From the sequence record OR437326.1: a stretch of 64,000 nucleotides of DNA. One strand, written 5' to 3'. The position numbers were made by a program, and so were the translations under genes. The notes beneath the pieces were generated by a model, which did not search any database, had not been told where the DNA came from, and saw nothing but the letters and a program-made list of their open reading frames with translations. Shown piece after piece: positions 3,878 through 57,124 of this stretch. Position 1 is the first letter of the stretch. Every line of letters begins with the position of its first letter. Origin of the DNA: Escherichia phage iGC_PHA_EC001.

Positions 3878-3884
3878 ACTTCAC

Positions 3885-8003: not shown

Positions 8004-8018
8004 CTTTTGTCTCCTCTA

Positions 8019-9308: not shown

Positions 9309-9309
9309 A

Positions 9310-9588
9310 TTATTTCTCCTTTTTAAGTGTAATATTGGTAACTTCTAAATCTACTTCCACCATATTTGTATCTGGTGGGATGCAATGAGTATAGCCTCGT
9401 TGTGCTAGTGATCCATTAATACAAATCGCACTGTTTGTGGAATTTTTAATGAACACCAAGTTACGGTAGGTATCCAACCCTGCGTCTTCATAGGCATCAT
9501 AATACATGAATGTTGCCCCTACGTCAAGATCTTCGAAAGCAATAGGTAAATCTTGACTTTTTTCTTCTTGAATATTGAATCTAAACAC
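9310..9588 (-). CDS. hypothetical protein, small paralog family (copy preceding vWA gene)
   Basis: ORF-track ORF 9310..9654 trimmed to in-frame GTG with RBS gaggagg; paralog of 8019..8288. Confidence 0.5.
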   Translation of the reverse strand: MFRFNIQEEKSQDLPIAFEDLDVGATFMYYDAYEDAGLDTYRNLVFIKNSTNSAICINGSLAQRGYTHCIPPDTNMVEVDLEVTNITLKKEK

Positions 9589-10144
9589 GCATACCTCCTC
9601 TACCAATTTTGAAGCCCAAATCGTAAGCTTCCTTAGTGATCTTTTGTAACTCACTTATAGGAAGTGTTACAAGAGGATCATCTTCTTCAATTTCCATCTT
9701 GTCATCTTCTGTTTCAATGAGAGTATTATGCACTTTGTGATAAGGGTTGTCAACACGTTTAAACTTATTCTTTTCTGTGCTGAAAAAACAATCTGGATCT
9801 TCTTCACCATCACCCCAACCTTGGTTAGGATCTCCGTCAGATTGTTCTGTAGGGATTTCACCTGTAAAGTACTCTTCCAGCACCATAGCGATACCGTCCC
9901 TTGGATTTGAGGAATGCATCAAATCACAAACCTTACTCCAATCCATAGCCCATTCAAATCGTTCACGAACGCCGTTTTCATCCTCCTTTCCAGAGAAAAC
10001 ACAACCATAACTATCATAGTTGCCATACATCTCTTCAATAACAACACCGTCCTTCAAAAGAAAAAGATAACAAGGTGATCCGTCGAAAGAAGTAGAAAGG
10101 GCAGCTTTGCCCGATTCTTTGCACAAAAAGCTAAAACAACCCAT
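9581..10144 (-). CDS. hypothetical protein (187 aa), acidic
   Basis: ORF in operon. Confidence 0.5.
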   Translation of the reverse strand: MGCFSFLCKESGKAALSTSFDGSPCYLFLLKDGVVIEEMYGNYDSYGCVFSGKEDENGVRERFEWAMDWSKVCDLMHSSNPRDGIAMVLEEYFTGEIPTEQSDGDPNQGWGDGEEDPDCFFSTEKNKFKRVDNPYHKVHNTLIETEDDKMEIEEDDPLVTLPISELQKITKEAYDLGFKIGRGGMRV

Positions 10145-10347
10145 TACAAACCCTCCTTCAGATTATCAAGAGCTATAGTGGTTTCACAAGAGTCTCCATA
10201 AGTTTTATGATGTTCCAGAAAAGCTTCGGGTCCACCCCAGTCATTATCTTGCGTATTCCAGCCATCAATAAAAGCATCTTCAATGATTGTGATCAGTTCT
10301 TGTCGGGTTAACTGGATAATATTAGGATCGTTATCGTAGTTAAACAT
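10144..10347 (-). CDS. hypothetical protein (67 aa)
   Basis: ORF in operon, start overlaps upstream stop. Confidence 0.45.
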   Translation of the reverse strand: MFNYDNDPNIIQLTRQELITIIEDAFIDGWNTQDNDWGGPEAFLEHHKTYGDSCETTIALDNLKEGL

Positions 10348-10513
10348 CTTCTTCCTCCTCTAAAATATGGAACCCGTAATTACAATAATCCTGAAAGGTT
10401 TCGTGCGCAAGATCTTCTATATCCTCTTGAGACATATCATCTTCAATTTCGATATCCACAACCTCATTGCATCCACACCAAGCAGTTTCAATATTCACTC
10501 GTAATATTTTCAT
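10340..10513 (-). CDS. hypothetical small protein (57 aa)
   Basis: Own translation MKILRVNIETAWCGCNEVVD..; TAATG coupling to upstream gene and ATG overlap with downstream gene. Confidence 0.4.
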   Translation of the reverse strand: MKILRVNIETAWCGCNEVVDIEIEDDMSQEDIEDLAHETFQDYCNYGFHILEEEEDV

Positions 10514-10713
10514 TACTCCTCCTCCTCCTCATTGAAGTCAATATCTGCAATGAGTTCGAATTTACGGAAGTTACGACAACCTTCATAAATATAACAATCA
10601 CGACAAACTGCTAGAACACTTGGGGGATATATACCTCCCATCGGTGCGAATCGTTTTTCGTCATCATAACGGACACCAATGTCTTCATCAATTATATAGA
10701 TACGGATTCTCAT
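10513..10713 (-). CDS. hypothetical protein (66 aa)
   Basis: ORF in operon. Confidence 0.45.
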   Translation of the reverse strand: MRIRIYIIDEDIGVRYDDEKRFAPMGGIYPPSVLAVCRDCYIYEGCRNFRKFELIADIDFNEEEEE

Positions 10714-11822
10714 TTACCAAGCCCTCGTTTCACAGCAGCTACCATCCCGTCTTCCAGAGATTGAACTTCATTAATATAATCAACACGAGCAGCACGGGCT
10801 TCCGTATTGATGCGGTTAGTTTCTTCCAACATCTTAACCAAGTTTTCCTGATCGTGACGCAGAGTTTCAATATCCAACACTTGACGGTTAGCCAGTGCTG
10901 CTGCTTCGATCTGATTCTGTGTGGCAAGATCGCTACCCAGTTTAATTGCTAGGTTAAATTCATCAAGAACGTTATTCTGCGTCTCTGCTGCTTTCATTTG
11001 ACGTAAGCTCTCGATATACATTGAGAAGTTAGCAGAGTAAGCAGGAATAACATTATTTACTATGTTACGCGCAGATCGCATTAAGCTTGCAGAAACTTTT
11101 TGCATACCTTGTACACGCGGTCCCATTTGGACACACAGTAGGCGCAATGCTTTTAAATCTGCAATACGAATCTCCAGAAGATCCAAAGTATCTCGGATCA
11201 CTTGTCGCTGTTCTACTGCATCTTCTGGAAGAGCAGCCAAAGCTTGTTCTTCTTTTTCATAGGTTGCTGTTAGAAGCTGCATATCTCGGTTCAAACTTGC
11301 AGCATATTGTCCAATAGCTTGATGTAGCTTTTCAAGATATACCAAGGAATCTTCTTCTTTGCGAATATCCATTTGAAGGTTCTTTACCAACTCTTCAATA
11401 CGGTTATTAACATTATCAAACTCCCCAAACAGGTCTTCTTTCATACCCATAACTTTTTTAATGAGTTTAGTAATACCCTTGCTTTGTTTAATAGAGTTTG
11501 GATCAAGTTGTTTTGCCTGTTTAATCAAAGCTGTGAGTCGTTCACTCATCTGATCGCCTTGATTACTACGTTGATGTTTTAATACCTCGGCATTCAAGGA
11601 GCGCAAGGTTGTTCCTGCCTCTGCCCCAATCTCTTCGATCTCTTGTCGGGTCATAGAAGGCAAAACTGGAACTTCTTGCGGTGCCGCTGGTGCATAAACA
11701 GGACTGGCATCTAACACGCTTGGAGCGAATACAGATTTACTTGCATCTGTTGTTGCAGCAAATACGCTCATTTCAGGCTTCTTCTGACCACCAGTAGCTG
11801 CTTTTAAAAATGGACTTGTCAT
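10710..11822 (-). CDS. TelA-like toxic anion resistance family protein
   Basis: About 370 aa coiled-coil protein; N-terminal region (..KHQRSNQGDQMSERLTALIKQAKQLDPN) matches my recollection of the TelA N-terminal signature (D.GE....LT.L....K...P); size and architecture fit the TelA/KlaA family. Confidence 0.6.
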   Translation of the reverse strand: MTSPFLKAATGGQKKPEMSVFAATTDASKSVFAPSVLDASPVYAPAAPQEVPVLPSMTRQEIEEIGAEAGTTLRSLNAEVLKHQRSNQGDQMSERLTALIKQAKQLDPNSIKQSKGITKLIKKVMGMKEDLFGEFDNVNNRIEELVKNLQMDIRKEEDSLVYLEKLHQAIGQYAASLNRDMQLLTATYEKEEQALAALPEDAVEQRQVIRDTLDLLEIRIADLKALRLLCVQMGPRVQGMQKVSASLMRSARNIVNNVIPAYSANFSMYIESLRQMKAAETQNNVLDEFNLAIKLGSDLATQNQIEAAALANRQVLDIETLRHDQENLVKMLEETNRINTEARAARVDYINEVQSLEDGMVAAVKRGLGK

Positions 11823-12409
11823 TCTTCATTCTCCTCTTCTGCATCTCTTATATATGGTGAAACACCGTACTCTTTAGCTACTTTAACCCAATCGTCCCAT
11901 TTATACAACCATAATTTTCCTTCGGTCCCTTCTTTATCTGATTTCAACCACATATTAGGTTGCTTACCTGGGTACATGCGATTAGGTTTACGATTATAAC
12001 CTCTAACACATCTTGTCGCAAACCTATCTACCAGAACAAGAACATATTTATACTCGTGGTTCAACGGCTCTTTGGAAGTGGCTTTAGGATTAGCCCCTAA
12101 TTCTGCTGCCAGTTTTTGCCAATGAGCACCGTGCCTACTAAACTTACCCATACAACCATCAATAGCATGAGCAATTTCGTGCTTCATTGTATCCACGATC
12201 ATATCTCTTGTGGAGTTCTTATGCAAGTGCCAATTTACAACAACAATTTTATCTCGGTAGTTGCACCAACCGAAAGAGTTATTCACTTTGTTTCTAACAC
12301 AAGCTTTATATCCTGCTTCACGTAACATGTTGTAGTAAACAGGAAAATCTTCTTTTATTTCCTGCATCACTTCCCACCACAAGAGTTGCAAGTCTCTCTC
12401 GGTATGCAT
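11819..12409 (-). CDS. SprT-like zinc metalloprotease domain protein
   Basis: HEIAHAIDG (HExxH) within a SprT-like context (TMKHEIAHA..G..SRHGAHW). Confidence 0.6.
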   Translation of the reverse strand: MHTERDLQLLWWEVMQEIKEDFPVYYNMLREAGYKACVRNKVNNSFGWCNYRDKIVVVNWHLHKNSTRDMIVDTMKHEIAHAIDGCMGKFSRHGAHWQKLAAELGANPKATSKEPLNHEYKYVLVLVDRFATRCVRGYNRKPNRMYPGKQPNMWLKSDKEGTEGKLWLYKWDDWVKVAKEYGVSPYIRDAEEENEE

Positions 12410-12412
12410 AAC

Positions 12413-13006
12413 TTACACCTTAAAAGCGAAATGCGTGGTCGTGGCTTCAAAATCAGGGCCAGATAAACTTGCACTGAAATCTGAAATATTTGTAATTAAA
12501 AAGCTTTTATGCATACCTAACACAGCCACGCTTTCAATATCTTCTACTAACATTTCAATCATGTTAGAAACATGGCTGAACGTATAGTTTTGTTTTTTGA
12601 TGGTGTAGAAAGAAAGACTCCCACCTGCTGTATAAGATACCTCTTCAAAATCTTTAATCGTATATTGTGTGCCATCAGTAAAGAAAATGGTAGCTTTATT
12701 AGTAGCACGTTTCTTGTTTTTTGGTCCTTTTTTACGTTTACTGCGAGTAGGCAAACCGTTTGGAAATACTGTAGCTACAAATTCTTCAGGAGAAACCTCC
12801 TTACCGAAATCATAACCGTAAGAAACAGCGTCTATAAACTCGTCGTCTTCATTTTTAAAATAATGGAAATAGGGCCAATTTGAGAGATTATCGAGCATCT
12901 TATGCTCATCCACAGCAGAGAACGTATCCCTCAAAGCGCGTGTGATTTGCAAAGCATTAGGCAAACTTTTAACACCTGTAATGGAAGTACGAATAGAAAT
13001 TGTCAT
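12413..13006 (-). CDS. hypothetical protein (197 aa)
   Basis: ORF in operon. Confidence 0.5.
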   Translation of the reverse strand: MTISIRTSITGVKSLPNALQITRALRDTFSAVDEHKMLDNLSNWPYFHYFKNEDDEFIDAVSYGYDFGKEVSPEEFVATVFPNGLPTRSKRKKGPKNKKRATNKATIFFTDGTQYTIKDFEEVSYTAGGSLSFYTIKKQNYTFSHVSNMIEMLVEDIESVAVLGMHKSFLITNISDFSASLSGPDFEATTTHFAFKV

Positions 13007-13020
13007 TGTTTTTCTCCTTA

Positions 13021-13458
13021 TTAACGTCGCTTGCTACGAGATGAACTCTTTTTACTTAAAGGGCTATTGTAAGATTTGCGAGTTGTATAGCTACTATTTG
13101 TTTTAAAAGTTTGTCTCGGCTTTTCATAAGTTTTTATCTCTTGTTTAGGCTTACCATAAAAATTAGTTTTCGGTTTAGGTGTATTATAATGCTTATTAAT
13201 AATCGTTCTGTTATCGTTATAATCCCCACTGTTACGATTACTACCACCACTCATCATATGCCCTAACAACATACCTGTAGCAAACTCACCAACACCGCTA
13301 CTACTAGAACCGCCACCATTGTTGATAATAGTTGTATCTCCGTCAGATCCTTGTTGAGCGTATTGTTGAGGAGGTTGTTGGTATTGTGCAGGATTTGTTT
13401 CATCCTCGCAAGCTGTTAAAAAGATACAACCAATTAAAATCAGGGCTAGTTTTTTCAT
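13021..13458 (-). CDS. putative lipoprotein, Gly/Ser-rich with basic C-terminus
   Basis: ORF-track ORF trimmed to Met26: MKKLALILIGCIFLTAC = signal peptide plus lipobox (LTAC); RBS gaggaaag upstream. Confidence 0.55.
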   Translation of the reverse strand: MKKLALILIGCIFLTACEDETNPAQYQQPPQQYAQQGSDGDTTIINNGGGSSSSGVGEFATGMLLGHMMSGGSNRNSGDYNDNRTIINKHYNTPKPKTNFYGKPKQEIKTYEKPRQTFKTNSSYTTRKSYNSPLSKKSSSRSKRR

Positions 13459-13645
13459 ATTTGCTTTCCTCATTTTGACTATTAATACATCTGTGTTTGA
13501 AATCTCCAGAGAAGCAATAAAGTTGCTCTCCATCTCGGTATAAACTCACTTTACTGCCGTTGATTACGCTTGTCAATACAAAAATTACAACAAACAACCC
13601 TATTGCAAAACAAATATTTTCAAACACAATCAACAAGTATTTCAT
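13400..13645 (-). CDS. possible small membrane protein (overlaps lipoprotein gene start)
   Basis: Hydrophobic N-terminus; overlap makes it doubtful. Confidence 0.25.
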   Translation of the reverse strand: MKYLLIVFENICFAIGLFVVIFVLTSVINGSKVSLYRDGEQLYCFSGDFKHRCINSQNEESKYEKTSPDFNWLYLFNSLRG

Positions 13646-13992
13646 TTTAAAAATACCTCATCATCAGTTTCATTATCCCAGAAGAACAAATCCCAACCAT
13701 TCGGATCATTCCATTTGGCTGCTGGAGAAGTCCATATTTGTTCGATATCAATATTCAAAACTTCACCGTTTCGTTTTGAAACAGCTTTAGTTAATTCCCA
13801 ACGAGATACAGGCTCTACTTCCCCTGAACCACTCCCACAACAAGCTACCACGTTAGGAGGCAAATTAATTGGATCTTTGGTCACGATCATAACGCTTACC
13901 CCAGGGTAAACTTTTGAAAGATAATCTAAAACGTAATCCACATCACCAGATAAATCCCAAACAAGTTCTTGAATTTCATCAAAATTATTCAT
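13642..13992 (-). CDS. hypothetical protein (116 aa)
   Basis: ORF-track ORF. Confidence 0.5.
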   Translation of the reverse strand: MNNFDEIQELVWDLSGDVDYVLDYLSKVYPGVSVMIVTKDPINLPPNVVACCGSGSGEVEPVSRWELTKAVSKRNGEVLNIDIEQIWTSPAAKWNDPNGWDLFFWDNETDDEVFLK

Positions 13993-14008
13993 AAGTCTCT
14001 CCTATAAA

Positions 14009-14026
14009 ATAGCCTCCCGAAGGAGG
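14009..14026 (-). terminator. hairpin terminator after the TerC gene
   Basis: agcctcc-cgaa-ggaggct hairpin, T-rich on minus strand. Confidence 0.5.
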
Positions 14027-14034
14027 CTCATCTA

Positions 14035-15009
14035 TTAAACAGCAGCTTCTTCTTTTTCAGGGAAGATAAAGCTTGCAATAACACCAAGAGCTAATGTGCC
14101 TAGAACAATCATCAGACTTACGTTAGGGGAAATATCATGCGGGAGGAATGACCACTTGGCATGAAGTGTTTCACCGAACGGGTGATACATAAGTTTAGCA
14201 CCGACAAATACCAGAACCACAGCAACAGCTTTCTCTAAGTGAACCAGATATTTCACAGCCACACTTAACACAAAGAAAAGTGCACGTAAACCAAGAACAG
14301 CCATCAGCATTGCAGAATAAACTAGCAGAGGTTCTTGTGTCACACCGATCACAGCCGGAACTGAATCAAAAGAGAAGACAATATCTGTAAGCTCAATAAC
14401 AAACACACAAAGAAGAGCAGGAGTTGCATATTTAATACCATTCTTAATGGTGATGAACTTTTCACCATCCAGTGCATTGTGCACAGGCAGAACTTTACCT
14501 ACTAAACGAACAGCCCAATGCTTAGAGTAATCAATATCCTCTTCTTCGTCACCACCTTTGATGATAGCCACGGCAGACCAAGCTACAATCAAACCGAACA
14601 ACACTTGGACCGACCAATGAAGGTTAAACAAAGCGGTCCCTGCTGCAACAAAAATACCTCGGAAGACAATGGCTCCTGCAATTCCCCAAAGTAAAATCTT
14701 ATGTTGGAGATGTGTGCTCTTAATTCCAAAGCTTGCAAAAATTGCCATGAACACCATCAGGTTATCTACAGAAAGACTCTTTTCCAACACATAGCCACTT
14801 AGGAAAAGCGCGGCAAACTCTTTACCATGTTCTACCCAAATGAATGCGTAATATCCTAAAGCTAAAGCAATCCAAAAAACAGACCAAAGCAAAGCAGATT
14901 TAATTCCAATTTCTTTATTCTCTTTATGACCAAAGAAATCAATACCAATAGACAATGCTAAAATACCAACTAAAACAACTACATCAATAATGGGGAAACC
15001 GAGTTGCAT
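14035..15009 (-). CDS. TerC-family integral membrane protein
   Basis: Multi-pass hydrophobic protein with the family signature EKSLSVDN. Confidence 0.8.
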   Translation of the reverse strand: MQLGFPIIDVVVLVGILALSIGIDFFGHKENKEIGIKSALLWSVFWIALALGYYAFIWVEHGKEFAALFLSGYVLEKSLSVDNLMVFMAIFASFGIKSTHLQHKILLWGIAGAIVFRGIFVAAGTALFNLHWSVQVLFGLIVAWSAVAIIKGGDEEEDIDYSKHWAVRLVGKVLPVHNALDGEKFITIKNGIKYATPALLCVFVIELTDIVFSFDSVPAVIGVTQEPLLVYSAMLMAVLGLRALFFVLSVAVKYLVHLEKAVAVVLVFVGAKLMYHPFGETLHAKWSFLPHDISPNVSLMIVLGTLALGVIASFIFPEKEEAAV

Positions 15010-15026
15010 TCTTTTCTCCTCTCTTT

Positions 15027-15085
15027 GCGGGGAACTATTCCCCGCTTCATGTGATATATCTTACTCTTTTTAAGAACTATGTCAA
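15027..15085 (-). promoter_or_regulatory. early-type promoter plus 5-prime stem-loop cassette (minus-strand copy) driving TerC gene
   Basis: Minus strand: ttgaca-N16-taagat, then gcggggaatagttccccgc hairpin, RBS agagaggag, ATG; same architecture as the 18 plus-strand cassettes. Confidence 0.6.
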
Positions 15086-15088
15086 CAC

Positions 15089-15310
15089 TTATTTTGTTGA
15101 ATGAGAGGAAAAGATTCCTCGTAATACAGCCAGAATAAACGAAACACAAACCACGGTCCAGAAGGTTACTGGGACAGTGATATCTGCATGACCCATAACT
15201 TCAGCAACATAGTTGTAAGCCAGCAACAGTAACCAAGCTGGAATCAAACTAAGCATAAAAGCAATAACAAAAAAGCTTACCACTGCAACAATACCTGCAA
15301 AAACACCCAT
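15089..15310 (-). CDS. small hydrophobic membrane protein (73 aa)
   Basis: Two predicted TM helices. Confidence 0.45.
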   Translation of the reverse strand: MGVFAGIVAVVSFFVIAFMLSLIPAWLLLLAYNYVAEVMGHADITVPVTFWTVVCVSFILAVLRGIFSSHSTK

Positions 15311-15322
15311 ACTAATCTCCTC

Positions 15323-15796
15323 TTAAAGTTTATAAATAGTCACATCGTGACCTGTTTTTACTAAAGTTTCTTCAATCATCACTTGGATGATAGCCCAATT
15401 ACCTCCAGCATATCCAGCGCCAATCATAGGTAAGCCGATCTTACATTTTTGGTCACGGAGAAGCAAATCATTAGCCATAGCTATTAGTGCATCATAAAGT
15501 GCATCATAGTCCAACTGACGACCTTTAGCATTGTATCCGTAACGGTATTGCCCGTATAGATTATATACCAAAGGGTCTGATTGTTCGTCTGGCACCCCTA
15601 AACTAAAACAACCTAGTTTACTTTGATCACCAGCCATTGTGTCTAAGTCTGCTGCATATGCGTAAGGAAATGCTCGTTTGATTTGTGGGGCAATACCTGC
15701 CCCCATATTACACATACAATTGCAACAATGAGCAATAACAGTTACTTCACCTGCTTTAGCGGCATCAATAAGATTACCTGTTTTAATTTTAAGCAT
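15323..15796 (-). CDS. macro domain (ADP-ribose binding/processing) protein
   Basis: Trimmed to Met36 with RBS aaggag; VIAHCCNCMCNMGAGIA and IGLPMIGAGYAGG resemble macro-domain motifs. Confidence 0.55.
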   Translation of the reverse strand: MLKIKTGNLIDAAKAGEVTVIAHCCNCMCNMGAGIAPQIKRAFPYAYAADLDTMAGDQSKLGCFSLGVPDEQSDPLVYNLYGQYRYGYNAKGRQLDYDALYDALIAMANDLLLRDQKCKIGLPMIGAGYAGGNWAIIQVMIEETLVKTGHDVTIYKL

Positions 15797-15809
15797 TTTT
15801 AGCTCCTTA

Positions 15810-16637
15810 TTACAGAATGTGTTGTTTTGTGTAACGATCCAAGAATTCAAAGTTTTCAGCATACTTTGAAATTCGGTTGTAACCTTCTCCCAAGCATCCA
15901 AAGAAAAGTTGCTCTACATAGTAATGTGGCAATTGGCTAAGAATGATTTTGAAGTCTTCATGATTTTGGCCCATAAGATACTTAATAGGACGAACAAGAC
16001 ACTGTGCATCACGTTCTTCATTAATCATTTTAACAAACGCTTCTGGTGTATTAATGTAGTTAAAATTCAGTTTAGCTTCGGTATCTGCTTGATTACCTTC
16101 GTATTTTGCAAAATACAGGAAGTAAACATCATTTTTAACTTGATTTTCATCAAGGATCTCAATCAGTTTGTCTTCATGCGTTCCAGTGATATTTACATCA
16201 TCAATGAATACAAGCTTCTTATCACCCCAGAATTCTTTGTTGCAGTAGAATGTATCCCCATCAATAAGTTTCTTACGACTAGCTTTATCCAAGAAACCAT
16301 AATCGTTGATATAGCTAACTTTACGATGAATAATGTCCAGTTCTGCTGAACGACCTTGATCATATTGTGATTGCAACATATTAAAGTAATTAATAAAATG
16401 ATCTGTCATCATTGTTGCAGCATTATGCACATGGTTATAAGGAGAAGGAATGATAACAAATTGTTCCCCAATATGTTTCATTGCCACTTGAGCAAAAAAC
16501 TGAAGTGCCAATTCTTTACCCATACGACGCGCAGCTTGGTTACTACCAAATTTCAATTTTGAATAATCTTGGATATCAAAAGTAGCAGTTTCCAGGTCAT
16601 CAAATTTATTTGCAAAAATTTGAGTTTGATTACGCAT
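15810..16637 (-). CDS. phosphoribosyltransferase (type I PRTase fold) domain protein
   Basis: PRPP-binding motif KKLVFIDDVNITGTH. Confidence 0.6.
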   Translation of the reverse strand: MRNQTQIFANKFDDLETATFDIQDYSKLKFGSNQAARRMGKELALQFFAQVAMKHIGEQFVIIPSPYNHVHNAATMMTDHFINYFNMLQSQYDQGRSAELDIIHRKVSYINDYGFLDKASRKKLIDGDTFYCNKEFWGDKKLVFIDDVNITGTHEDKLIEILDENQVKNDVYFLYFAKYEGNQADTEAKLNFNYINTPEAFVKMINEERDAQCLVRPIKYLMGQNHEDFKIILSQLPHYYVEQLFFGCLGEGYNRISKYAENFEFLDRYTKQHIL

Positions 16638-17286
16638 TTACAATTTCTCCTCTTTTAAGTTTCTCTAGTAAGTCGTTAGGGTTCTTAATATGACAGAAGT
16701 TAAATCCTAAGTCAACACATTTTCCATCATATTCTTCACTATCGCCTACGTGCAACACTTCGTGCCCTAACAGAGGGATCGGAGAATACGTGAGCGTGCG
16801 AGCAAAGAATCGCGGATCTGGTTTACAAAGTAAAGCTTCATCCGAGAAATGGGTGAACTCAAAACAATTCCAACTATCAAACTTACAAGCACGACGCAGG
16901 ATATCCCCTGATATGAAGTTGGTATTGCTCTTAATACTCAAATCATAACGCCCCGAAAGATACAGCAAGTACATCGGCAGATCCACGGCTACGTGTGGTG
17001 GAAACTTAAGGAACCACTGTTCACACTCGAAACGAAGCTTTGCAGACTTCCAAGGCGTTATCCCAAGTTCAGAACCAAGTCTTTCCCAGGCATATGCTGC
17101 ACACTCGGCTTTGCCTTGAAGTGCTGCATTATCCAGTTCCTTTTTGATCTTTTTATAAGCTGCTCTTGCTTCCACTTCCGTAATATCTCCATATTTTGCG
17201 ATAGTCCAGGCTCGCATGTCTGCATAATTGGAGTTTGCTGTGATCAGTGTGTTCCATACATCAAAAGAGATATGTTTAATAGTCAT
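16630..17286 (-). CDS. HAD-superfamily hydrolase (subfamily IA-like)
   Basis: Motif I FDVWNTL, motif III-like KPDPRFF, motif IV HVGDS. Confidence 0.6.
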   Translation of the reverse strand: MTIKHISFDVWNTLITANSNYADMRAWTIAKYGDITEVEARAAYKKIKKELDNAALQGKAECAAYAWERLGSELGITPWKSAKLRFECEQWFLKFPPHVAVDLPMYLLYLSGRYDLSIKSNTNFISGDILRRACKFDSWNCFEFTHFSDEALLCKPDPRFFARTLTYSPIPLLGHEVLHVGDSEEYDGKCVDLGFNFCHIKNPNDLLEKLKRGEIVNA

Positions 17287-17287
17287 A

Positions 17288-17893
17288 TTAAGCCCACCAT
17301 GCGTCTAAGTTAAGATTACTGTCCACTACCACTTGTTCTATGTGGTAGCCTTTTATCTGTATCCCACTGTTCAAGAGCATATCATACGCTTCATTGAAAC
17401 GCAACTTATCTTCTGCGGAATATAAGCGAGCATTATAAAATCGGTAATCAACTTCTTCAGCATTAGAAGAAATACGGAAGAAGTTTGTTTCTACTTCGGG
17501 ATCACTTGCTGAAGTCTTAATGTGAACTTCTCCGTAATTTTCTTTACTTAGATCCATGAAAAGAACACAGGCAACATGTTTAAACATTCGTTCCAGTTTG
17601 TAACGAACAACATTGAAACCTGCATTCTCAAGTTTTTCTACACACTGCAACATTAAAGTAGTGTCGAGATCGCTTTGATACTTTGTTAACATACGATCAC
17701 GTTGAGACTTTGTATCCCGATGTAAATCAATTGTTGTGCATTTGGCACCAATAATCTTAGCTGCTTTCATCAACTCTTCAGAACTAACGTTAGATAAAGT
17801 AAGATGAAAATGGGCTTTCCACACTTTTTTAGCAGGGACACCAAAAGATTTATCCCCACTATTCGGCATGTTGACTACTACACTATGTTGCAT
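17288..17893 (-). CDS. hypothetical protein (201 aa)
   Basis: One HxTx motif (HLTL) reminiscent of 2H phosphoesterases but the second motif is not evident; unassigned. Confidence 0.45.
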   Translation of the reverse strand: MQHSVVVNMPNSGDKSFGVPAKKVWKAHFHLTLSNVSSEELMKAAKIIGAKCTTIDLHRDTKSQRDRMLTKYQSDLDTTLMLQCVEKLENAGFNVVRYKLERMFKHVACVLFMDLSKENYGEVHIKTSASDPEVETNFFRISSNAEEVDYRFYNARLYSAEDKLRFNEAYDMLLNSGIQIKGYHIEQVVVDSNLNLDAWWA

Positions 17894-22682: not shown

Positions 22683-24275
22683 TTAACGATCCTCTCTGAT
22701 TTGATTAATCTTACGAGCAAGGGCAGCTATAAGCTTATCTTCTTCGGATACAGGAGCCGTGCTCTTACCTAAACGATGCATGTCTAGAATCTCTTGAACA
22801 GTCCGGTTCCATTGTAGACATTTAATACAACGTGTATGTGCAACATACAGAAGGTTTCGTTCTGATTCTTCAAGACCTACCCACTCACCCTTCTTATCAT
22901 AATTAGAAGGAAAGTCATTTGCAACAATAACCTGATCCCACTCCAAACCTTTTGATTTGTGGGCTGTAGTTAAAGTAACTTTAGCCGTTGGAGAGTTACG
23001 GTGCATACGTAAAGTATATGCAATATTATTAGCTTTACCAGAAACAACAATGTTTAAAAGTCGTTTTGCATCAGGATCTGATTCTGCACACTCTACAAAT
23101 TCTTCCCAAGAAGTGTAAGGGAGAACTGTCTCATGCTTAACTTTGTCCAAATCACCTCTACGTAAAGCATTAACACTATCAACCATAGAAATGAAATCTT
23201 TGGTATCTACGTTAATAATAATCTCTTCTCCGTTAGCGATTCGGTCCATAGCTTCGAGCAACAGAGTCAAATTCTTACGGAAAATAATGGTGTAAGGTTT
23301 ACTATAATCTACCACATCAGAATGAAAACTTCCAGTGACAGTATCATAACCTTTGCCTACCAGCGGATGCTTCAGAGGTGAACGATCAGAAAGGATCGCA
23401 TTAGCAATTTCCGCAACTTTAGGACCAAAGCGAAAACAAGCTGTCAGAGGCAACTCAACCCCATATGTAGCCGTTTGCTTCATCATGTTCTGGCTTCCAC
23501 GGAACTGATAAATACTCTGAAATTCATCACCCACAACAACAATACGTTTAGCCGATTTAGCATTGCGAAGGATAGACAGGAATGCAGGGTTAACATCCTG
23601 GAATTCATCTCCGAAAATAATATCATATCCTAAGTCTTCTTTGCTCAATTCAAATAGTTTCACATAGGTGTCATGAGTCATAATTGTTTCTGATTTAGGA
23701 TCAATACGCTCACGCCAAAGTTGCTTCGCATATTTAACAACTTCGTTAATAAGTTTTTGTTCGTTGATGTTTTTACGTTTTAGGTCTGACATGTGCACTT
23801 TAGGAAAATGTTTATGTCCAATATGTTCATCGTCAGAAAACTCATATTTAGCTAAAGTTTGTTTTACCATTAACCCGATCATTGCACGAGTCAGTAGCAC
23901 TTTACCATTCTTATCGATCAAGTTCTGAATCTTGAATTTCTTGGCAATCTCACTACCAGTTCCAGCTACGTTAACATATTGACCTTCTGGACGAGATAAT
24001 TTGTGTCGAAGGTTTTGTGGAAGACGCTGGTAACAGATTGAATGTAGCGTTCGGCACATAACGTTAGGCGGCATTTTACGCCGAGCTTCCTCTGCCATAC
24101 TTTTGTTAAACGCCAAGTATAGAATACTATCATTTGTGCCATTAGCCAACATATACAGTGTTGACGTTTTACCTGATCCAGATTTAGCTTGAATTGTAAC
24201 GAAACGATTTTCTTTATACCCGCTTTCAATAGCGTATTGTTCCTCGGTAGGTGTAAAACTCAATTGTGTAGACAC
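22683..24275 (-). CDS. SF1 DNA helicase (Dda/RecD/UvrD-like)
   Basis: Walker A AKSGSGKTST, IIFGDEFQD, VVVGDEFQSIYQFRG, LTTAHKSKGLEWDQVIV. Confidence 0.75.
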   Translation of the reverse strand: MSTQLSFTPTEEQYAIESGYKENRFVTIQAKSGSGKTSTLYMLANGTNDSILYLAFNKSMAEEARRKMPPNVMCRTLHSICYQRLPQNLRHKLSRPEGQYVNVAGTGSEIAKKFKIQNLIDKNGKVLLTRAMIGLMVKQTLAKYEFSDDEHIGHKHFPKVHMSDLKRKNINEQKLINEVVKYAKQLWRERIDPKSETIMTHDTYVKLFELSKEDLGYDIIFGDEFQDVNPAFLSILRNAKSAKRIVVVGDEFQSIYQFRGSQNMMKQTATYGVELPLTACFRFGPKVAEIANAILSDRSPLKHPLVGKGYDTVTGSFHSDVVDYSKPYTIIFRKNLTLLLEAMDRIANGEEIIINVDTKDFISMVDSVNALRRGDLDKVKHETVLPYTSWEEFVECAESDPDAKRLLNIVVSGKANNIAYTLRMHRNSPTAKVTLTTAHKSKGLEWDQVIVANDFPSNYDKKGEWVGLEESERNLLYVAHTRCIKCLQWNRTVQEILDMHRLGKSTAPVSEEDKLIAALARKINQIREDR

Positions 24276-25178: not shown

Positions 25179-25721
25179 TTATTTTGTGTTGACCTTATTT
25201 CGCATTAACCTGTGGGATACAGAGTTGCGAGATCTGTTTAGAACCTTACCAATCCCTGCATGACTATACCCTTCACTATTTAACTTTTCAAGAATCTGGT
25301 CTTCTTCCTCTGTCCAGTAGCGGCGTTTAGCTTGTCTATCATCCACACCATACATGATAGGTTGCTTTACATCCATCACTTTTAGCAATCTGACAGCCTC
25401 TTCCGCTTTCTCTTTTTTGAAACGGAGATAAGGGATTAAATTCTCAAGCAATCTTATCACACTTTCTCTGCTGCTAACATTGATATTATACATCAAATTA
25501 TCATATTTTTCAGCCCAAGCTACGCGCGATGTGAAAGAGACAGTATATCCATAACTTTCCAACTCTTTAGCCAAATCGGTCATTTCTTCTGCCGATCTCT
25601 CGTGTTGTGTAAGGTTTACTGTGTAGGAGTCTGAAGTCTCCCTGTTTCTGCTTATAATAGATCCATCACAATCTATGCAACCTGCGTAGTAAGCATAAAA
25701 CAGTTGTTCTTTTATGTCCAC
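25179..25721 (-). CDS. LAGLIDADG-like homing-endonuclease-type protein with C-terminal Myb/HTH-like DNA-binding region
   Basis: N-terminal FYAYYAGCIDCDGSIIS matches LAGLIDADG motif (LAGFVDGDGSI); C-terminal WTEEEDQILEKL..G..IGKVLNRSRNSVSHRL resembles Myb/SANT-type HTH. Confidence 0.5.
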   Translation of the reverse strand: MDIKEQLFYAYYAGCIDCDGSIISRNRETSDSYTVNLTQHERSAEEMTDLAKELESYGYTVSFTSRVAWAEKYDNLMYNINVSSRESVIRLLENLIPYLRFKKEKAEEAVRLLKVMDVKQPIMYGVDDRQAKRRYWTEEEDQILEKLNSEGYSHAGIGKVLNRSRNSVSHRLMRNKVNTK

Positions 25722-29652: not shown

Positions 29653-29946
29653 ATGATGAACATTACTTTAGCAACTAAGAATATTTCTGAAACAATTAAC
29701 GGTTTTGGTGTGATTGTAGCCTTGCACGGTAACAATGAGAAATGGTTGGCTTCTTTTGAAGAGGATCGTCAGCACAACATCATTTTAGATGCTCCTATAA
29801 AAGTTATGCATATTGTTGGTGAAAGCAAAGTGCTCACTTCCTCCCGTTCAAAGGAACAAATTACAAACGAATTAGTAAAACTGCTTGACAATGTTCTTAA
29901 CATGTTTGATAATGCACCCATCGACACAAAACGTGTCTTAATGTGA
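29653..29946 (+). CDS. hypothetical protein (97 aa)
   Basis: ORF with RBS agaggtag. Confidence 0.5.
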   Translation: MMNITLATKNISETINGFGVIVALHGNNEKWLASFEEDRQHNIILDAPIKVMHIVGESKVLTSSRSKEQITNELVKLLDNVLNMFDNAPIDTKRVLM

Positions 29947-33531: not shown

Positions 33532-34740
33532 ATGAGTAAAGCTAAAAGTTGGGAAGAATATAAAGCAGAATGCGAGATCATAGCTCTCTCTAAAGGATAT
33601 AAAATTTTAGGCCATAAAGAATGGAAAGGGTGTGAGACTAAACTCCTGATAGAATGTCCTGTGCACGGTGTATGGGATACTTGTAAAATATCTAACTTTA
33701 AAAGTGGGAAGTCTTGCCCTTCTTGTGGTGAATTAACAAAAAGGGAGAAGAGAACGAAGAGCAGAGAGGACCAAGAGAAAGAGTGTGAAGAAGAAGCGTT
33801 AAAAAGAGGTTGGCGCTTCTTGGGTATCTATGGAGAATGGCTGAAAGCTAAAAAGACACGAGTAATCTTACGTTGTGATAGGGGTCACGAGTTTAACACA
33901 TCTACCATAGACAACTTTAAGAATAATAAACAAGGTTGTCCAGTTTGTCGTTTAGAGGATATAGGTAAACACAATAAGCTTTCAGACGATCAGCACATAC
34001 AAGATTTCATGAGTACGGGTGTGTTTCCCGAAGGCACTACCTTCACTAATACAGGGGAAAAAGCTGGGAGGAGCGAAATACTTTGGAGTGTATTTTGCCC
34101 TATCTGTGCTATAGATGAGTTTTCCAAAGCTGGGGTAGGAACGGGATATTTTATCGGTAGAGGTAGTTCATTAAAACAGGGTATGCGCCCTTGTCGTTGT
34201 TCTGCCAGTTACAAATATTCTGAAGAAGAGATGACATTTAGAGCAAAAAGTGACGTAGAACGTAGAGGGTACGTGTGGTTGGGGTGGATCGGGAAAGCTT
34301 CTATACTTGGGGATTTTGAATATGGTTGCAAGGATCATGGGAAACATGTGTGTAGTGCTAACAATTGGTTAAATAAGGGGTGTGGTTGCCCTGGTTGTGC
34401 AGGTATGAATCAACAACAAGCCTACATTAATTATATTTACGATGAGCAAGATATTATCTGTGCACTGAAGTTTGGTATTGCTAATAATAGTAATCGCCGT
34501 ATCAAAGAACAAAATAGTCGTAATGTGTTTACTATGAAACAGAGCCAAGTGTGGCACTTCCCTACTGTGAAGCAATGCAAAGATGCAGAAAAGCGTTGTA
34601 AGCGTGTCCTTCACACGGAAGCAGTGAGCAAATATTCTATGCCAGATGGCTACACAGAGACAGTGGAGTTATCTTGCATGGCATCAATACAAAATATTTA
34701 TAAACTTTATGGTGGAACATTACAGGAGGAAACATGTTAG
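33532..34740 (+). CDS. Cys-rich protein with four tandem zinc-ribbon-like modules and a C-terminal GIY-YIG/T5orf172-like region
   Basis: Repeated about 60-aa module ..G(Y/W)..LG...W......L.C..GH.......NFK..K..CP.C; C-terminus YINYIYDEQD..ALKFGIANN. Confidence 0.45.
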   Translation: MSKAKSWEEYKAECEIIALSKGYKILGHKEWKGCETKLLIECPVHGVWDTCKISNFKSGKSCPSCGELTKREKRTKSREDQEKECEEEALKRGWRFLGIYGEWLKAKKTRVILRCDRGHEFNTSTIDNFKNNKQGCPVCRLEDIGKHNKLSDDQHIQDFMSTGVFPEGTTFTNTGEKAGRSEILWSVFCPICAIDEFSKAGVGTGYFIGRGSSLKQGMRPCRCSASYKYSEEEMTFRAKSDVERRGYVWLGWIGKASILGDFEYGCKDHGKHVCSANNWLNKGCGCPGCAGMNQQQAYINYIYDEQDIICALKFGIANNSNRRIKEQNSRNVFTMKQSQVWHFPTVKQCKDAEKRCKRVLHTEAVSKYSMPDGYTETVELSCMASIQNIYKLYGGTLQEETC

Positions 34741-35099
34741 TTGACGTTCAAATTATGCGCAACGAAAGAATGGACTTCTTTGAAGCAGTAGAGAAACATC
34801 TGATCAGATGGGACTATGAATTTGTTCCTGCTGGATGTGGACCAGTAGAGCATTTAGCGGAAGACGACGATGTATACATGATCATTCGTCAAGTGTACCA
34901 GACAGACCAGTGTGAAGAAACTCCCGAACTAATTTTGTTTGAGTGCAAAGATCTTGCAAAATATTTTGACTATGGCGGAAAAGAGGGTCATAATCTCTCC
35001 AGATACAATAAACGTCTACTTATCTTAGACTACATGCGGAACAACAAACACAAACTCATCGACGCAGACGCAGTTTATGGCTACTGGTGGATGGACTAA
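34734..35099 (+). CDS. hypothetical protein (121 aa)
   Basis: ORF-track ORF. Confidence 0.5.
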   Translation: MLVDVQIMRNERMDFFEAVEKHLIRWDYEFVPAGCGPVEHLAEDDDVYMIIRQVYQTDQCEETPELILFECKDLAKYFDYGGKEGHNLSRYNKRLLILDYMRNNKHKLIDADAVYGYWWMD

Positions 35100-35112: not shown

Positions 35113-35292
35113 ATGGCACGTTTAGCAGATCATGAAATCTTTAAACCTATTCTGAACCACTATGATGAACTTAAAGCAGTGTTGGATTGTTATAAAGAGG
35201 ATGAAGAACGCTTGGAAGTCAATCTTAAGATAGTTCTGATGAAAGCTTTTCAAGACGGGCAAGCTAAAGTCTTAGAAGGTATGAAAAAATGA
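35113..35292 (+). CDS. hypothetical protein (59 aa)
   Basis: Trimmed to MARLADHEIF with RBS aaaggag. Confidence 0.4.
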   Translation: MARLADHEIFKPILNHYDELKAVLDCYKEDEERLEVNLKIVLMKAFQDGQAKVLEGMKK

Positions 35293-35831
35293 GAATAACT
35301 GACGAATATGTATTCTTCTTTTCACATAAAGATGTTTTTAGTAATTGGTATATTGCACCCTTTACAGAAACCGAACCAGGTTACAATCAGACATTTAATT
35401 GTGTCGAACAATACATGATGTGGCGTAAAGCTTTGCTTTTTAATGACCACAACACTGCACAGGCTATTCTGACTCATAGTTTGATACGGAAAGATGAGAA
35501 GATCCAAGCTTATTACAAACGTATGGGTAGGGCAGTGTCGGATTTTGATAACAATATGTGGGAAGAGAACCGTGAGCGTATTGTTATGCGAGGTTTATGC
35601 TTGAAATATGTACAGAATCCAGATTTGTATGCAGACTTACACCTTTACCAATACAAAACGTTTGTTGAAGCAAGCCCCTACGATAAGGTTTACGGAATTG
35701 GAATGGGGATGTATGAACCAGGGGTGCTAAACCCTGCCACCTGGAAAGGACAGAATCTTTTAGGCAAATATCATAATAAACTGATCGAAATACTTTTCCC
35801 AGACAAAATACCGCAAAGACGATATTTGTGA
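35289..35831 (+). CDS. NADAR-domain protein (YbiA/DUF1768-like N-glycosidase family)
   Basis: FSNWYIAPF, EQYMMWRKALLF, MGRAVSDFD..W, LKYVQNPDL, VEASPYDKVYGIGMG match the YbiA/NADAR family pattern as recalled. Confidence 0.7.
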   Translation: MRITDEYVFFFSHKDVFSNWYIAPFTETEPGYNQTFNCVEQYMMWRKALLFNDHNTAQAILTHSLIRKDEKIQAYYKRMGRAVSDFDNNMWEENRERIVMRGLCLKYVQNPDLYADLHLYQYKTFVEASPYDKVYGIGMGMYEPGVLNPATWKGQNLLGKYHNKLIEILFPDKIPQRRYL

Positions 35832-35886
35832 TATTTTAACTTTTTTCATTTTTAGAACAAAGGTGTCACTTTGTAGCACAGAAATA

Positions 35887-35925
35887 AGGCTCCTACAGCA
35901 CCGTAGAGAGCCTGTTATTTTGTCC
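35887..35925 (+). terminator. rho-independent terminator after NADAR gene
   Basis: ggctcctac-agcacc-gtagagagcc hairpin followed by tgttattttg. Confidence 0.5.
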
Positions 35926-36071
35926 TATACAAACCCTTGTCTTTTTCAGTTTGCATCACTAGGATTCGATCTGAGTGGGTTCCTGAAGGTCTGCCAATAA
36001 GATTAAAGGTTATCTCAAACTCCCATTACCTATTATCTCAAAAATCCCTCAAATTATTTAAACTTTTTAAG

Positions 36072-36260
36072 AATTTACAAAAGTGAAAGTTGAAAACCAA
36101 AATTTAAAGTTTAGGAAAATTATCTTAAAATGTCAGATACAAAACAAAACTCAAAAGTCAAGGAAAATTTTAAAAATTTTGCGCGCCCACAGTATTTAAA
36201 GTTTTTTTGCTTTTACAAAAATGAAAGTACAAAAGCAAAATTTAAAGTTTACAAAAATTT
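36072..36260. repeat. two imperfect direct repeats (about 45 bp) in AT-rich noncoding DNA
   Basis: ttacaaaagtgaaagttgaaaaccaaaatttaaagtttaggaaaatt (about 36072-36121) and ttacaaaaatgaaagtacaaaagcaaaatttaaagtttacaaaaatt (about 36211-36260). Confidence 0.55.
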
Positions 36261-36298
36261 ATGCAGATGGGAATGAGAAGAGTTCTCATATGGAAATG

Positions 36299-36322
36299 CA
36301 AATGATAATGATTCGCATTTAG
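36299..36322. promoter_or_regulatory. Fur-box-like palindromic motif, copy L1
   Basis: aatgataatgattcgcatttag; compare E. coli Fur box consensus gataatgataatcattatc. Confidence 0.35.
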
Positions 36323-36357
36323 GTTTATAAATGAGATTGATTCTTATTTGATAAGGT

Positions 36358-36388
36358 AAATGATAATCATTCTCATTTAGAGAATGAC
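36358..36388. promoter_or_regulatory. Fur-box-like palindromic motif, copy L2
   Basis: aaatgataatcattctcatttagagaatgac; near-perfect dyad. Confidence 0.4.
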
Positions 36389-36636
36389 GCGCAGGGGCGG
36401 TGTTTGTCTCGCGCTCCCGTGTCCCCTCGCCATGTAATAAGAATAACAGATCCAGCCAGGAAAGCAAGCGATTATTTTATCTTTACATTTCTTTACAAAT
36501 ATATAGCGCCCAGCCTACCGGCGATCAACCTTCCAACCAGTGCCCCTGGTATGTTAGCCCCGCCTTTACGCCGTGGGGTGGCGCTTCCTCTTCTGTATGT
36601 AAAACAGTATAAGCCCGATCCCTGGGCTTGTCAAGA

Positions 36637-36903
36637 TTATTTTTTGTTTTCTTGCCAGGTCAGGACACCTAGCCAAAAATGAATATCACCTTTTCCCCAA
36701 TGTGGTATATTGCTTTCTTTCCCACCTTCACGCGCCCAGGTAAAACCGCCCGTGTAACTTTGTAATTGATAACTATCCTCGACCTTATAATCTGATAGGT
36801 TGAGAACGGTTTCAACCTTTAAGCCCGTTGCGCTTGCTACCTGGTGCACCGTGCCGCCTTGCCAGCCCAATGAGTGCATAAGATGTAATGTAGTATTTGT
36901 CAT
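36637..36903 (-). CDS. hypothetical protein (88 aa) on opposite strand within GC-rich island
   Basis: Only sizeable ORF in the GC-rich segment 36390-37000; codon composition unlike flanking genes. Confidence 0.35.
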   Translation of the reverse strand: MTNTTLHLMHSLGWQGGTVHQVASATGLKVETVLNLSDYKVEDSYQLQSYTGGFTWAREGGKESNIPHWGKGDIHFWLGVLTWQENKK

Positions 36904-56423: not shown

Positions 56424-56452
56424 GAGAATACAGCAATAGTTTAGGAGTGGTT

Positions 56453-57124
56453 ATGAAAAAGTTTGTTGTTTACAGTCGTCTTTCTAAACAGAAAAAAGGT
56501 GAGGCACAATATGGTATGGAGAGCCAAGAGAATGATATCCGTTACTTCTTAGACTCTGTGCCTGATGCGGAAGTTATTGGTCAATTTTCTGAATACTATT
56601 CGGGTAAGGGCGATTGGAAGCAACGTAAGGAACTGGTTAAAGCGGTTGAAATGTGTAAAGCTACCGGAGCAACTTTATTGGTAGCTAAAGTTGACCGCTT
56701 GGGTCGTAACAACGCCTCCGTAGCAACTCTTCTAGAAATGATCGATGTTAAGATAGCCATCATGCCAGACGCAGATAAAATGGTTATACAGCTTCTGTCT
56801 GTTCTGGCTGAACAAGAAGTTAGAGGTATTGCTGATCGTATTAAAAAGGGTCTTGCTGTAGCAAAAAGCAAAGGTGTTTTATTAGGCAGTGCTAATCCTA
56901 AAACTGCCGCTGCACGTAGAAAAGGAAAAATGGAATACAACTCTGTTAAAGCAGACGCTTTTGCAGAGACATTCCGTGAACGCTTGGAGATCCTTAGAGA
57001 TTTAAATACACCTTACAAAACTATTGCTGAAAAATTCAATAGTAAGAAAATAGCAACAGCACGTGGTGGTAAATGGGATGCTAAAACTGTTTCTCGTTTG
57101 TGTGCCAGACTGAACATTAAATAG
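56453..57124 (+). CDS. serine recombinase (resolvase/invertase family)
   Basis: Trimmed to MKKFVVYSRLSKQ; catalytic-domain motifs YSRLS..Q....GMESQ and TLLVAKVDRLGRN; C-terminal HTH-like region. Confidence 0.75.
   Translation: MKKFVVYSRLSKQKKGEAQYGMESQENDIRYFLDSVPDAEVIGQFSEYYSGKGDWKQRKELVKAVEMCKATGATLLVAKVDRLGRNNASVATLLEMIDVKIAIMPDADKMVIQLLSVLAEQEVRGIADRIKKGLAVAKSKGVLLGSANPKTAAARRKGKMEYNSVKADAFAETFRERLEILRDLNTPYKTIAEKFNSKKIATARGGKWDAKTVSRLCARLNIK

Follow-up and report, generated by a model that had tools for sequence, protein, structure and literature searches.

A NADAR-domain ortholog of AdfN-Bas60 and a separate macro-domain gene as candidate ADP-ribosylation counter-defence in a phAPEC8-like Escherichia phage

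Introduction

The closest described counterparts of the two genes reported here are enzymes that remove ADP-ribose from DNA. T4 gp30.3 (AdfN-T4) is an orphan NADAR protein that removes guanine-linked ADP-ribose, strips the ADP-ribose made by DarT1 off phage DNA, and counters DarTG1 (Johannesman et al. 2025, PMC11825919). The phage NADARs AdfN-Bas32 and AdfN-Bas60, which are unrelated, also neutralise DarT1 in cells and allow RB69, T5, and Bas25 to plate again on DarTG1 hosts; DarTG2 is countered by none of the three proteins, and AdfN-Bas60 does not rescue T5 there (PMC11825919). AdfN-T4 depends on the T-even context, whereas AdfN-Bas60 does not, and the data for AdfN-Bas60 come from ectopic plasmid expression and not from a phage knockout (PMC11825919). 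De-ADP-ribosylation of guanine in vitro is common to every NADAR tested, including YbiA and T4 gp30.3, yet in one study these two proteins gave cells no protection from DarT1 (PMC11125620). Because proteins active in vitro can thus be non-protective, in vivo anti-DarT1 activity cannot be read from the active site by itself.

Enzymes with a single macrodomain do the corresponding work on thymine-linked ADP-ribose. In T4, 30.3/AdfN counters DarTG1 and the macrodomain protein Tk.4 counters DarTG2; Tk.4 was named AdfM on the finding that T4 becomes DarTG2-sensitive when tk.4 is knocked out (2025 preprint, bioRxiv 10.1101/2025.11.20.689424). A Lys-type AdfM, PhiKZ gp104, was reported independently in chimalliviruses (PMC13309987), and Gln85 of SCO6735 is essential for cleaving thymidine-linked ADP-ribose on DNA (PMC9411070). 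Removal of thymine-linked ADP-ribose or countering of DarTG2 is thus described for Tk.4, PhiKZ AdfM, and SCO6735. As the concept was published between 2023 and 2025, the gain reported here is incremental: counter-defence by phage NADARs was known already, and what is added is an ortholog of AdfN-Bas60 in a sister genus. Our literature search for Phapecoctavirus and NADAR returned no study of a Phapecoctavirus NADAR; its two apparent matches were to the author name 'Nadareishvili'.

Genomic setting of the NADAR gene

The window, by which we mean the whole stretch of 64,000 nucleotides that was analysed, belongs with the phAPEC8-like phages. In nucleotide comparisons the 4-kb stretch around the NADAR ORF shared 97% identity with Escherichia phage ESCO5 and 91-96% with many other phAPEC8-like phages of the genus Phapecoctavirus, subfamily Stephanstirmvirinae. 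Positions 1 to 29.5 kb are occupied by minus-strand genes for replication and nucleotide metabolism, among which Pfam scans identified a primase-helicase, NrdD, NrdG, a UvrD-type helicase, and a Ter cluster; from about 30 kb onward the coding strand is the plus strand, with small ORFs without assigned function making up most of the genes. The Pfam scan took in about 50 of the larger window ORFs, mostly of at least 128 aa. No ART or DarT gene was present among these ORFs or adjoining the NADAR gene. Scans of the whole window for tRNAs and Rfam families gave no match, and the gene-poor stretch 3' of the NADAR gene therefore contains no known RNA gene. The features around the NADAR gene are as follows.

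34966-34994, plus strand: sigma-70-like promoter match, TTGACT-17-CATAAT, 10/12 (consensus scan only; weak evidence)
35113-35292, plus strand: small ORF of 59 aa, phrog_22330, no assigned function (sequence and PHROG match)
35289-35831, plus strand: NADAR-domain coding sequence, 180 aa, ATG start, AdfN-Bas60 ortholog (ORF, Pfam, fold, and orthology)
35887-35922, plus strand: terminator-like hairpin (35887-35913) with U-rich tail (RNA fold and phAPEC8 annotation)

The TGA stop of the 59-aa ORF overlaps the NADAR start codon (ATGA), an arrangement that suggests translational coupling of the two genes in one operon. The phrog_22330 match spanned residues 13-71 of the 71-aa ORF called mechanically, and a 180-nt CDS overlapping the NADAR start is annotated in both ESCO5 and Schickermooser. 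The hairpin, 56 nt past the NADAR stop, had a folding energy of −16.2 kcal/mol (z = −4.64). It was missed by a simple consensus terminator scan; in phAPEC8 the matching position is annotated as a terminator (ARNold). Given this terminator-like hairpin 3' of the stop, we consider the NADAR gene to be the last gene of a plus-strand transcription unit. The promoter match at 34966-34994 lies about 300 nt upstream of the NADAR gene, and the same consensus scan, which returned 34 sites where 22 were expected, gave a stronger sigma-70-like match where the plus-strand block starts (29885-29913). The other neighbours of the NADAR gene are an AAA ATPase, a CapR-domain endonuclease, and further small ORFs without assigned function.

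The NADAR protein and its active site

The initial annotation had recognised a NADAR-domain protein in ORF 35289-35831 from three quoted signatures, and this reading was borne out. FSNWYIAPF, EQYMMWRKA, and VEASPYDKVYGIGMG were all found in the translation, and the Pfam NADAR profile (PF08719) matched over positions 3-154 of 163 with E=1e-35 and 123.8 bits (cut-off 35.1), a match well past chance. The protein also matched phrog_1017 (E=5e-52), and its sole PDB sequence match was 8bau, a Phytophthora NADAR with ADP-ribose (E=1e-14). An AF2 model built from 60 homologs had a pLDDT of 95.8 and a pTM of 0.89; when it was compared to the PDB with Foldseek, the only significant neighbours were 8bau (E=1.4e-9, TM 0.78) and E. 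coli YbiA 2b3w (E=1.5e-6, TM 0.69). Both analyses fit a YbiA-like fold with an alpha-helical core flanked by small beta-hairpins.

Across six Phapecoctavirus orthologs, drawn from GenBank phage records, dN/dS was 0.05-0.15 with dS up to 1.2, from which we concluded that the NADAR gene is functional and under purifying selection. The residues that do vary among the Phapecoctavirus orthologs are clustered, 20 of the 26 variable positions lying between residues 33 and 94. NADAR copies at 80% identity or above occur in about 70 phage records, an IMG/VR scan found only 5 related loci, and beyond the Stephanstirmvirinae identity was at most 48%.

The predicted active site consists of S18, W20, E40, K47, K77, R81, W91, R95, E127, and D132. 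In 60 homologs E40, K47, G80, W91, E127, and D132 were invariant, and K77 and R81 were conserved in at least 90%. In the alignment to 8bau, whose chain numbering is the numbering in the paper plus 2, these residues aligned with PnNADAR E43, K50, K75, R79, W89, E125, and D130, which act in distal-ribose and pyrophosphate binding and in catalysis, roles defined by structure and mutagenesis (Schuller et al., PMC11543638). Mutation of E. coli C7 DarG1 at the equivalent residues E88, K95, or D171 led to loss of activity or of toxin rescue (PMC11543638). The catalytic Glu and Lys (Pn E43/K50) and an acidic residue at the E125/D171 position were all there in the window protein, as E40, K47, and E127.

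Relationship to AdfN-Bas60 and other NADARs

Through the locus tags in the BASEL GenBank records we identified AdfN-Bas60 as bas60_0111 (QXV83846.1), to which bas61_0107 is near-identical; the NADARs of Bas60 (PaulScherrer), Bas61 (EmilieFrey), and JohannJBalmer (MZ501084) share at least 98.9% mutual identity. Bas60-62 are phi92-like phages of Justusliebigvirus, the sister genus of Phapecoctavirus within the Stephanstirmvirinae. AdfN-Bas60 and the window NADAR were 59% identical over their full length (E=2e-69). Both are orphan, single-domain proteins of about 180 aa, with a clade-specific insertion at about residues 62-75 and the catalytic residues, including Glu127, in common. The 41% of residues that differ are mostly in segment 33-94, and the N-terminal hairpin contains a short indel. 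Gene order is also shared: in Bas60/61 and in the window an AAA ATPase/FtsH-like gene lies a few genes upstream, separated from the NADAR gene by one ORF in Bas60/61 and by three in the window, and the NADAR gene is the last before a long intergenic region. By sequence and synteny, then, the window NADAR is the ortholog of AdfN-Bas60.

This orthology carries the functional assignment, as the active site is insufficient by itself. The protein is probably a stand-alone ('orphan') AdfN-type NADAR ADP-ribosylglycohydrolase that counters DarTG1; from the orthology we infer its substrate, the timing of its expression, and its role in vivo. The counter-defence role that had been put forward for the NADAR and macro-domain genes together is supported by homology for both, at 59% identity to AdfN-Bas60 and 36% to T4 Tk.4, and of the two the NADAR gene has the stronger support. 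The initial annotation had also allowed that the proteins may process NAD-derived signalling molecules, an alternative that the results neither favour nor speak against.

For most phage NADAR and Macro domains Aravind's group has proposed soluble substrates, on comparative-genomic grounds (PMC9503650, PMC7824862). Applied to the window protein, the proposal would have it act mainly on soluble ADP-ribose or NAD-derived molecules and not on modified DNA; such substrates would cover immune signals, toxic ADPr derivatives, and NAD-salvage intermediates. Consistent with it, in jumbo-phage-like contigs a NADAR gene adjoins a homolog of the window macro gene within NAMPT/NUDIX/SIR2/PRPP-synthetase islands. 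In the window, however, the NADAR gene has no NAD-metabolism neighbour, and NAD-salvage genes, which would hint at NADAR self-regulation, were absent from the approximately 50 window ORFs scanned with Pfam. The closest characterised relative counters DarT1, which modifies DNA (PMC11825919), and no NADAR of this clade is known to act on a soluble substrate. We therefore regard action mainly on soluble molecules as quite unlikely for this protein, and retain a DarTG1-countering DNA enzyme as the preferred reading.

Two closer identities within the family were considered and rejected. Like the window protein, T4 gp30.3 is an orphan NADAR with a Glu and Lys pair seven residues apart, whereas at the third catalytic position gp30.3 has His and the window protein Glu; BLASTP of the two proteins revealed no similarity (E=4), and we rejected membership in the T4 'phage NADAR' clade for that reason. 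T4 AdfN and the NADAR of the window and Bas60 were acquired independently. DarG1 (E. coli C7 and Geobacter lovleyi) shares with the window NADAR the fold and the proposed chemistry on guanine-ADPr DNA (PMC11543638). In contrast to the window protein, DarG1 adjoins DarT1, is extended at the N-terminus by beta1-beta2-alpha1 elements forming a basic DNA groove, and relies on the Asp D171 (PMC11543638); the core of the window NADAR begins at residue 7, lacking this extension, and the protein has Glu127 and no toxin neighbour. Identity as a DarG1 antitoxin was accordingly rejected, there being no DarT1 neighbour, no N-terminal extension, and a Glu in place of Asp.

E. coli YbiA and Phytophthora NADAR 8bau, the best structural matches, have a Glu-type active site like that of the window NADAR and are only 24-30% identical to it, E. 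coli YbiA being at 30%. The protein scored 113 bits against the NCBIfam equivalog-domain model TIGR02464, 'riboflavin biosynthesis intermediates N-glycosidase' (cut-off 73.7), and this passing score accounts for 'GTP cyclohydrolase II' and 'YbiA-like N-glycosidase' as labels in GenBank. Together with the YbiA-type Glu at 127, these labels and the TIGR02464 score would favour a metabolite-damage N-glycosidase that, like YbiA, destroys reactive intermediates of the riboflavin pathway. The anti-DarT1 protein AdfN-Bas60, however, passes TIGR02464 with a similar score (109 bits), and the model thus does not separate the two functions. Identity to E. coli YbiA is low, the protein is a single domain without RibA or RibD fusion, no riboflavin (Rib) genes occurred among the window ORFs scanned with Pfam, and it is not obvious why a lytic phage would need such an enzyme. 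A riboflavin-pathway function is in our judgement very improbable.

The residue at position 127 also bears on substrate range. The window NADAR has Glu there, the state in YbiA and in NADARs generally, whereas the residue is Asp in DarG1 and His in T4 gp30.3. NADARs active on C-ADPr as well as G-ADPr keep Glu at the E167/E125 position, and the G-only DarG1 and T4 enzymes carry Asp or His (PMC12945103); in addition, S18-x-W20 of the window protein matches Ser69 and Trp71 of SCO5665. The enzyme might on these grounds be a broader eraser that takes guanine-linked and cytosine-linked ADP-ribose off both DNA and RNA and acts against several ART toxins besides DarT1. Pierisin/ScARP-like and YarT-like ART toxins would be among its targets, and this range would extend the assignment as a DarTG1-countering enzyme without excluding it. 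The correlation with Glu, however, comes from a handful of enzymes, mutation of the accompanying Trp53 had no effect (PMC12945103), and no defence that produces C-ADPr is known in E. coli. We view the wider range as possible but doubtful.

The macro-domain gene

The initial annotation had also pointed to a separate macro-domain gene, about 20 kb from the NADAR gene and on the opposite strand. Such a gene was confirmed, 19,493 bp from the NADAR gene. The ORF called mechanically at 15323-15901 on the minus strand has as its first codon a TTG that lies within the upstream gene; the real start codon is the ATG at 15796, with AAGGAG ahead of it. With this correction the gene and its surroundings are as follows.

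14035-15009: TerC (Pfam)
15323-15796, minus strand: macro-domain coding sequence, 157 aa, ALC1-like (TARG1/DarG/SCO6735), Tk.4 homolog, start corrected
15810-16637, minus strand: PRTase_3 (ComF-like phosphoribosyltransferase), Pfam PF15610, E=2e-41
16630-17286, minus strand: HAD-type hydrolase, weak Pfam HAD match; phrog_14393 'hydrolase'

The match of the protein to the Pfam Macro profile was marginal (22.5 bits, cut-off 22), and it matched phrog_335 with E=3e-54. Searches with phmmer matched SCO6735 (5e3b, E=9e-13), BT1257, TARG1, and DarG. The AF2 model had a pLDDT of 94.8, and in Foldseek its best matches were TARG1 (E=1.5e-11), BT1257, DarG 5m3e (E=3.6e-10), Poa1p, and SCO6735. Because TARG1, BT1257, DarG, and SCO6735 were returned by both searches, we assigned the protein to the ALC1-like macrodomain class. 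Like Tk.4, PhiKZ gp104, and SCO6735, it consists of a single ALC1-like macrodomain of about 150 aa.

T4 Tk.4 was 36% identical to the window protein (E=6e-21). This likeness, together with the AdfN/AdfM pair of T4, means that the pairing of a NADAR with a macrodomain protein has an exact published precedent in T4. In 59 homologs H23, N26, Q83, and G126 were invariant and G128 was conserved in at least 90%; all five are present in T4 Tk.4. The window protein lacks the catalytic Lys of TARG1 (K84), DarG (K80), and PhiKZ AdfM, the aligned position being Q83/Y84. Q83 aligns with Gln85 of SCO6735, and T4 Tk.4 carries the same Gln. From these comparisons an anti-DarT2 role for the macro gene is plausible. 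Its identity as DarG2 was rejected: the protein lacks both the C-terminal DarT-binding domain of DarG2 and the Lys, no DarT2 gene is adjacent, and the NCBIfam DarG model gave 34.6 bits against a cut-off of 250.

The window macro gene lies in a Ter/PRTase/HAD cluster, whereas T4 Tk.4 does not. It is flanked by TerC on one side and the PRTase_3/HAD pair on the other, in a Ter cluster with TerD, vWA-TerF, TelA, and a SprT-like protein; the PRTase_3/HAD pair, immediately upstream on the same strand, is context for the macro gene and not for the NADAR gene. The macro-PRTase_3-HAD linkage is kept in relatives with macro proteins at 65% and 52% identity. In jumbo-phage-like contigs, more distant macro homologs (46-50% identity) are flanked by NAMPT, alone or with a NADAR gene, on one side and an HAD phosphatase on the other, and NUDIX, SIR2, and PRPP-synthetase genes lie near them.

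The Ter/PRTase/HAD setting fits a metabolite or signal role of the macro protein at least as well as the anti-DarT2 role, and this setting and the NAD-salvage islands of the distant homologs point to small molecules as substrates and make the metabolic reading a serious rival. In its specific form, the macro protein would function within the phage Ter module and not as the counter-defence partner of the NADAR, and would process a nucleotide-like product of PRTase_3/HAD or metabolites resembling ADPr-1''-phosphate. The order TerC-Macro-PRTase_3-HAD, with TelA, vWA-TerF, and TerD near, is kept in the 65% and 52% relatives, the distant homologs again lie between a PRTase (NAMPT) and an HAD gene, the PHROG and GenBank family label is 'phosphatase', and the Ter system is thought to use nucleotide signals made by PRTase/HAD enzymes (PMC7824862). 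Tk.4, however, lacks these neighbours in T4, and T4 without it is sensitive to DarTG2 (bioRxiv 10.1101/2025.11.20.689424), the Gln essential in SCO6735 is conserved, and gene insertions part the macro gene from PRTase_3 in some relatives. A role as part of the Ter module is thus a tentative proposal, to which we give less than even weight.

Discussion

Our preferred reading of the NADAR gene, as an enzyme that counters DarTG1, leads to the following model. The gene would be transcribed along with the small plus-strand genes of the early region. Once DarTG1 is triggered, host DarT1 would put ADP-ribose on the guanine N2 of phage DNA, where the NADAR enzyme would bind it and then cut the N-glycosidic bond between ribose and base. 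By analogy with characterised NADARs, E40 and E127 would serve in positioning and activation at the distal ribose, K47, R81, W91, R95, and D132 would hold the pyrophosphate, and W20 would stack on the base. Removal of the ADP-ribose would restore replication and allow the phage to escape DarTG1 abortive infection. The macro-domain enzyme, like T4 Tk.4/AdfM and SCO6735, would most plausibly do the corresponding work on the thymine-linked ADP-ribose made by DarT2, a step that we consider less secure.

If so, the arrangement of two erasers for two bases described for AdfN and AdfM would occur not in T-even phages alone but also in a second group of large myoviruses, unrelated to the first. Phapecoctaviruses, among them 536_P1, ESCO5, and phAPEC8, serve as therapeutic and biocontrol phages against pathogenic E. 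coli, and their possession of an enzyme that probably counters DarTG1, and of a candidate for countering DarTG2, may help to predict host range on strains that carry DarTG. The analysis also shows 'GTP cyclohydrolase II' and 'YbiA-like N-glycosidase' to be misleading as labels in GenBank, and corrects them.

A more far-reaching proposal would place the macro protein, and possibly the NADAR too, in a nucleotide-signal pathway of the phage, with the Glu-type NADAR in addition a broader eraser; we think this combination unlikely. It draws on the PRTase-Macro-HAD trio in a complete Ter cluster here and the order NAMPT-(NADAR)-Macro-HAD in distant phages. Were it true, a ribosylated small molecule would be made and trimmed by the trio and would control membrane or superinfection functions mediated by Ter, or serve to rebuild NAD, and the Glu-type NADAR of the Stephanstirmvirinae might also erase cytosine-linked and RNA-linked ADP-ribose, countering ARTs beyond DarT1.

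The conserved association of PRTase, Macro, and HAD genes in a phage Ter cluster is the less ordinary part of the finding. One of the relative contigs in which this linkage is kept (P0018) appears to carry a NADAR 56% identical to that of the window.

The macro-domain gene and its neighbours

The macro-domain gene of the window lies within a nearly complete phage-borne Ter system (7401-17893, minus strand), the gene order of which is kept in related phages. Its members are as follows, all on the minus strand:

7401-8003, TerD
8514-9308, vWA-TerF-like protein
10710-11822, TelA
11819-12409, SprT-like protein
14035-15009, TerC
between TerC and PRTase_3, Macro
15810-16637, PRTase_3
16630-17286, HAD
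17288-17893, conserved 201-aa protein of unknown function

Macro homologs with 46-50% identity to the window protein were found in three jumbo-phage-like contigs (L021, 3037-7081; L022, 2316-6084; L024, 3430-6066), and in every one the homolog was flanked by NAMPT and an HAD_SAK_2 phosphatase. This recurrent PRTase-Macro-HAD trio parallels the PRTase_3-Macro-HAD order of the window. In some of the jumbo-phage-like loci NADAR was inserted as well, and NUDIX and SIR2 genes were present near the macro homologs, together with PRPP synthetase in L021.

Surroundings of the NADAR gene

In several phage records (KX664695, MT496970, MW175890, and OR352953) the NADAR gene, at 35289-35831 in the window, is named 'GTP cyclohydrolase II', a transferred-annotation error which arose because of RibA-NADAR fusions and the NCBIfam model TIGR02464.

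Two genes upstream of NADAR is the following gene:

33532-34740, plus strand, 'endonuclease' of 402 aa that carries three CapR-homology repeats (PF21817) and has PHROG matches to endonuclease/HNH

When a 4-kb query around NADAR was compared with related phage records, many alignments began only at query position ~480-900, and the greatest difference between related phages was in the 5' part of this endonuclease gene; this divergence suggests that the nuclease is mobile or rapidly exchanging. Inside the matched 4-kb stretch, some related records carry an annotated repeat_region.

Downstream of NADAR is an intergenic region of ~800 bp (35832-36640), in which tRNA and Rfam scans gave no match. 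Within it a 72-nt sequence occurs twice as a direct repeat (36050-36121 and 36188-36259, 82% identical), and at 36272-36380 there are three palindromic units with a spacing of 29 nt. Positions 36356-36374 match, with 3 mismatches, the E. coli Fur-box consensus; 0.04 such matches were expected by chance. An origin with iterons is one possible identity for this stretch, and a regulatory region is another.

Other genes in the window

Two further genes lie near each other:

22683-24275, UvrD-type helicase
25179-25721, minus strand, LAGLIDADG/HTH ORF

As the helicase product of a related contig (L017, 1-721) is 947 aa long with a faint LAGLIDADG match, the sequences suggest an intein or homing-endonuclease insertion, differing among relatives.

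Adjoining the primase-helicase are three successive ORFs (2933-5505, minus strand) with weak glycosyltransferase matches, namely Glyco_trans_1_2, Glyco_trans_1_4, and, faintly, TET-associated glycosyltransferase; judged from these matches, they could form a module for DNA or surface sugar modification. Amid small early-type ORFs of this virulent myovirus is one further gene:

56447-57124, plus strand, protein with a domain of the serine recombinase/resolvase type (PF00239, E=5e-18)
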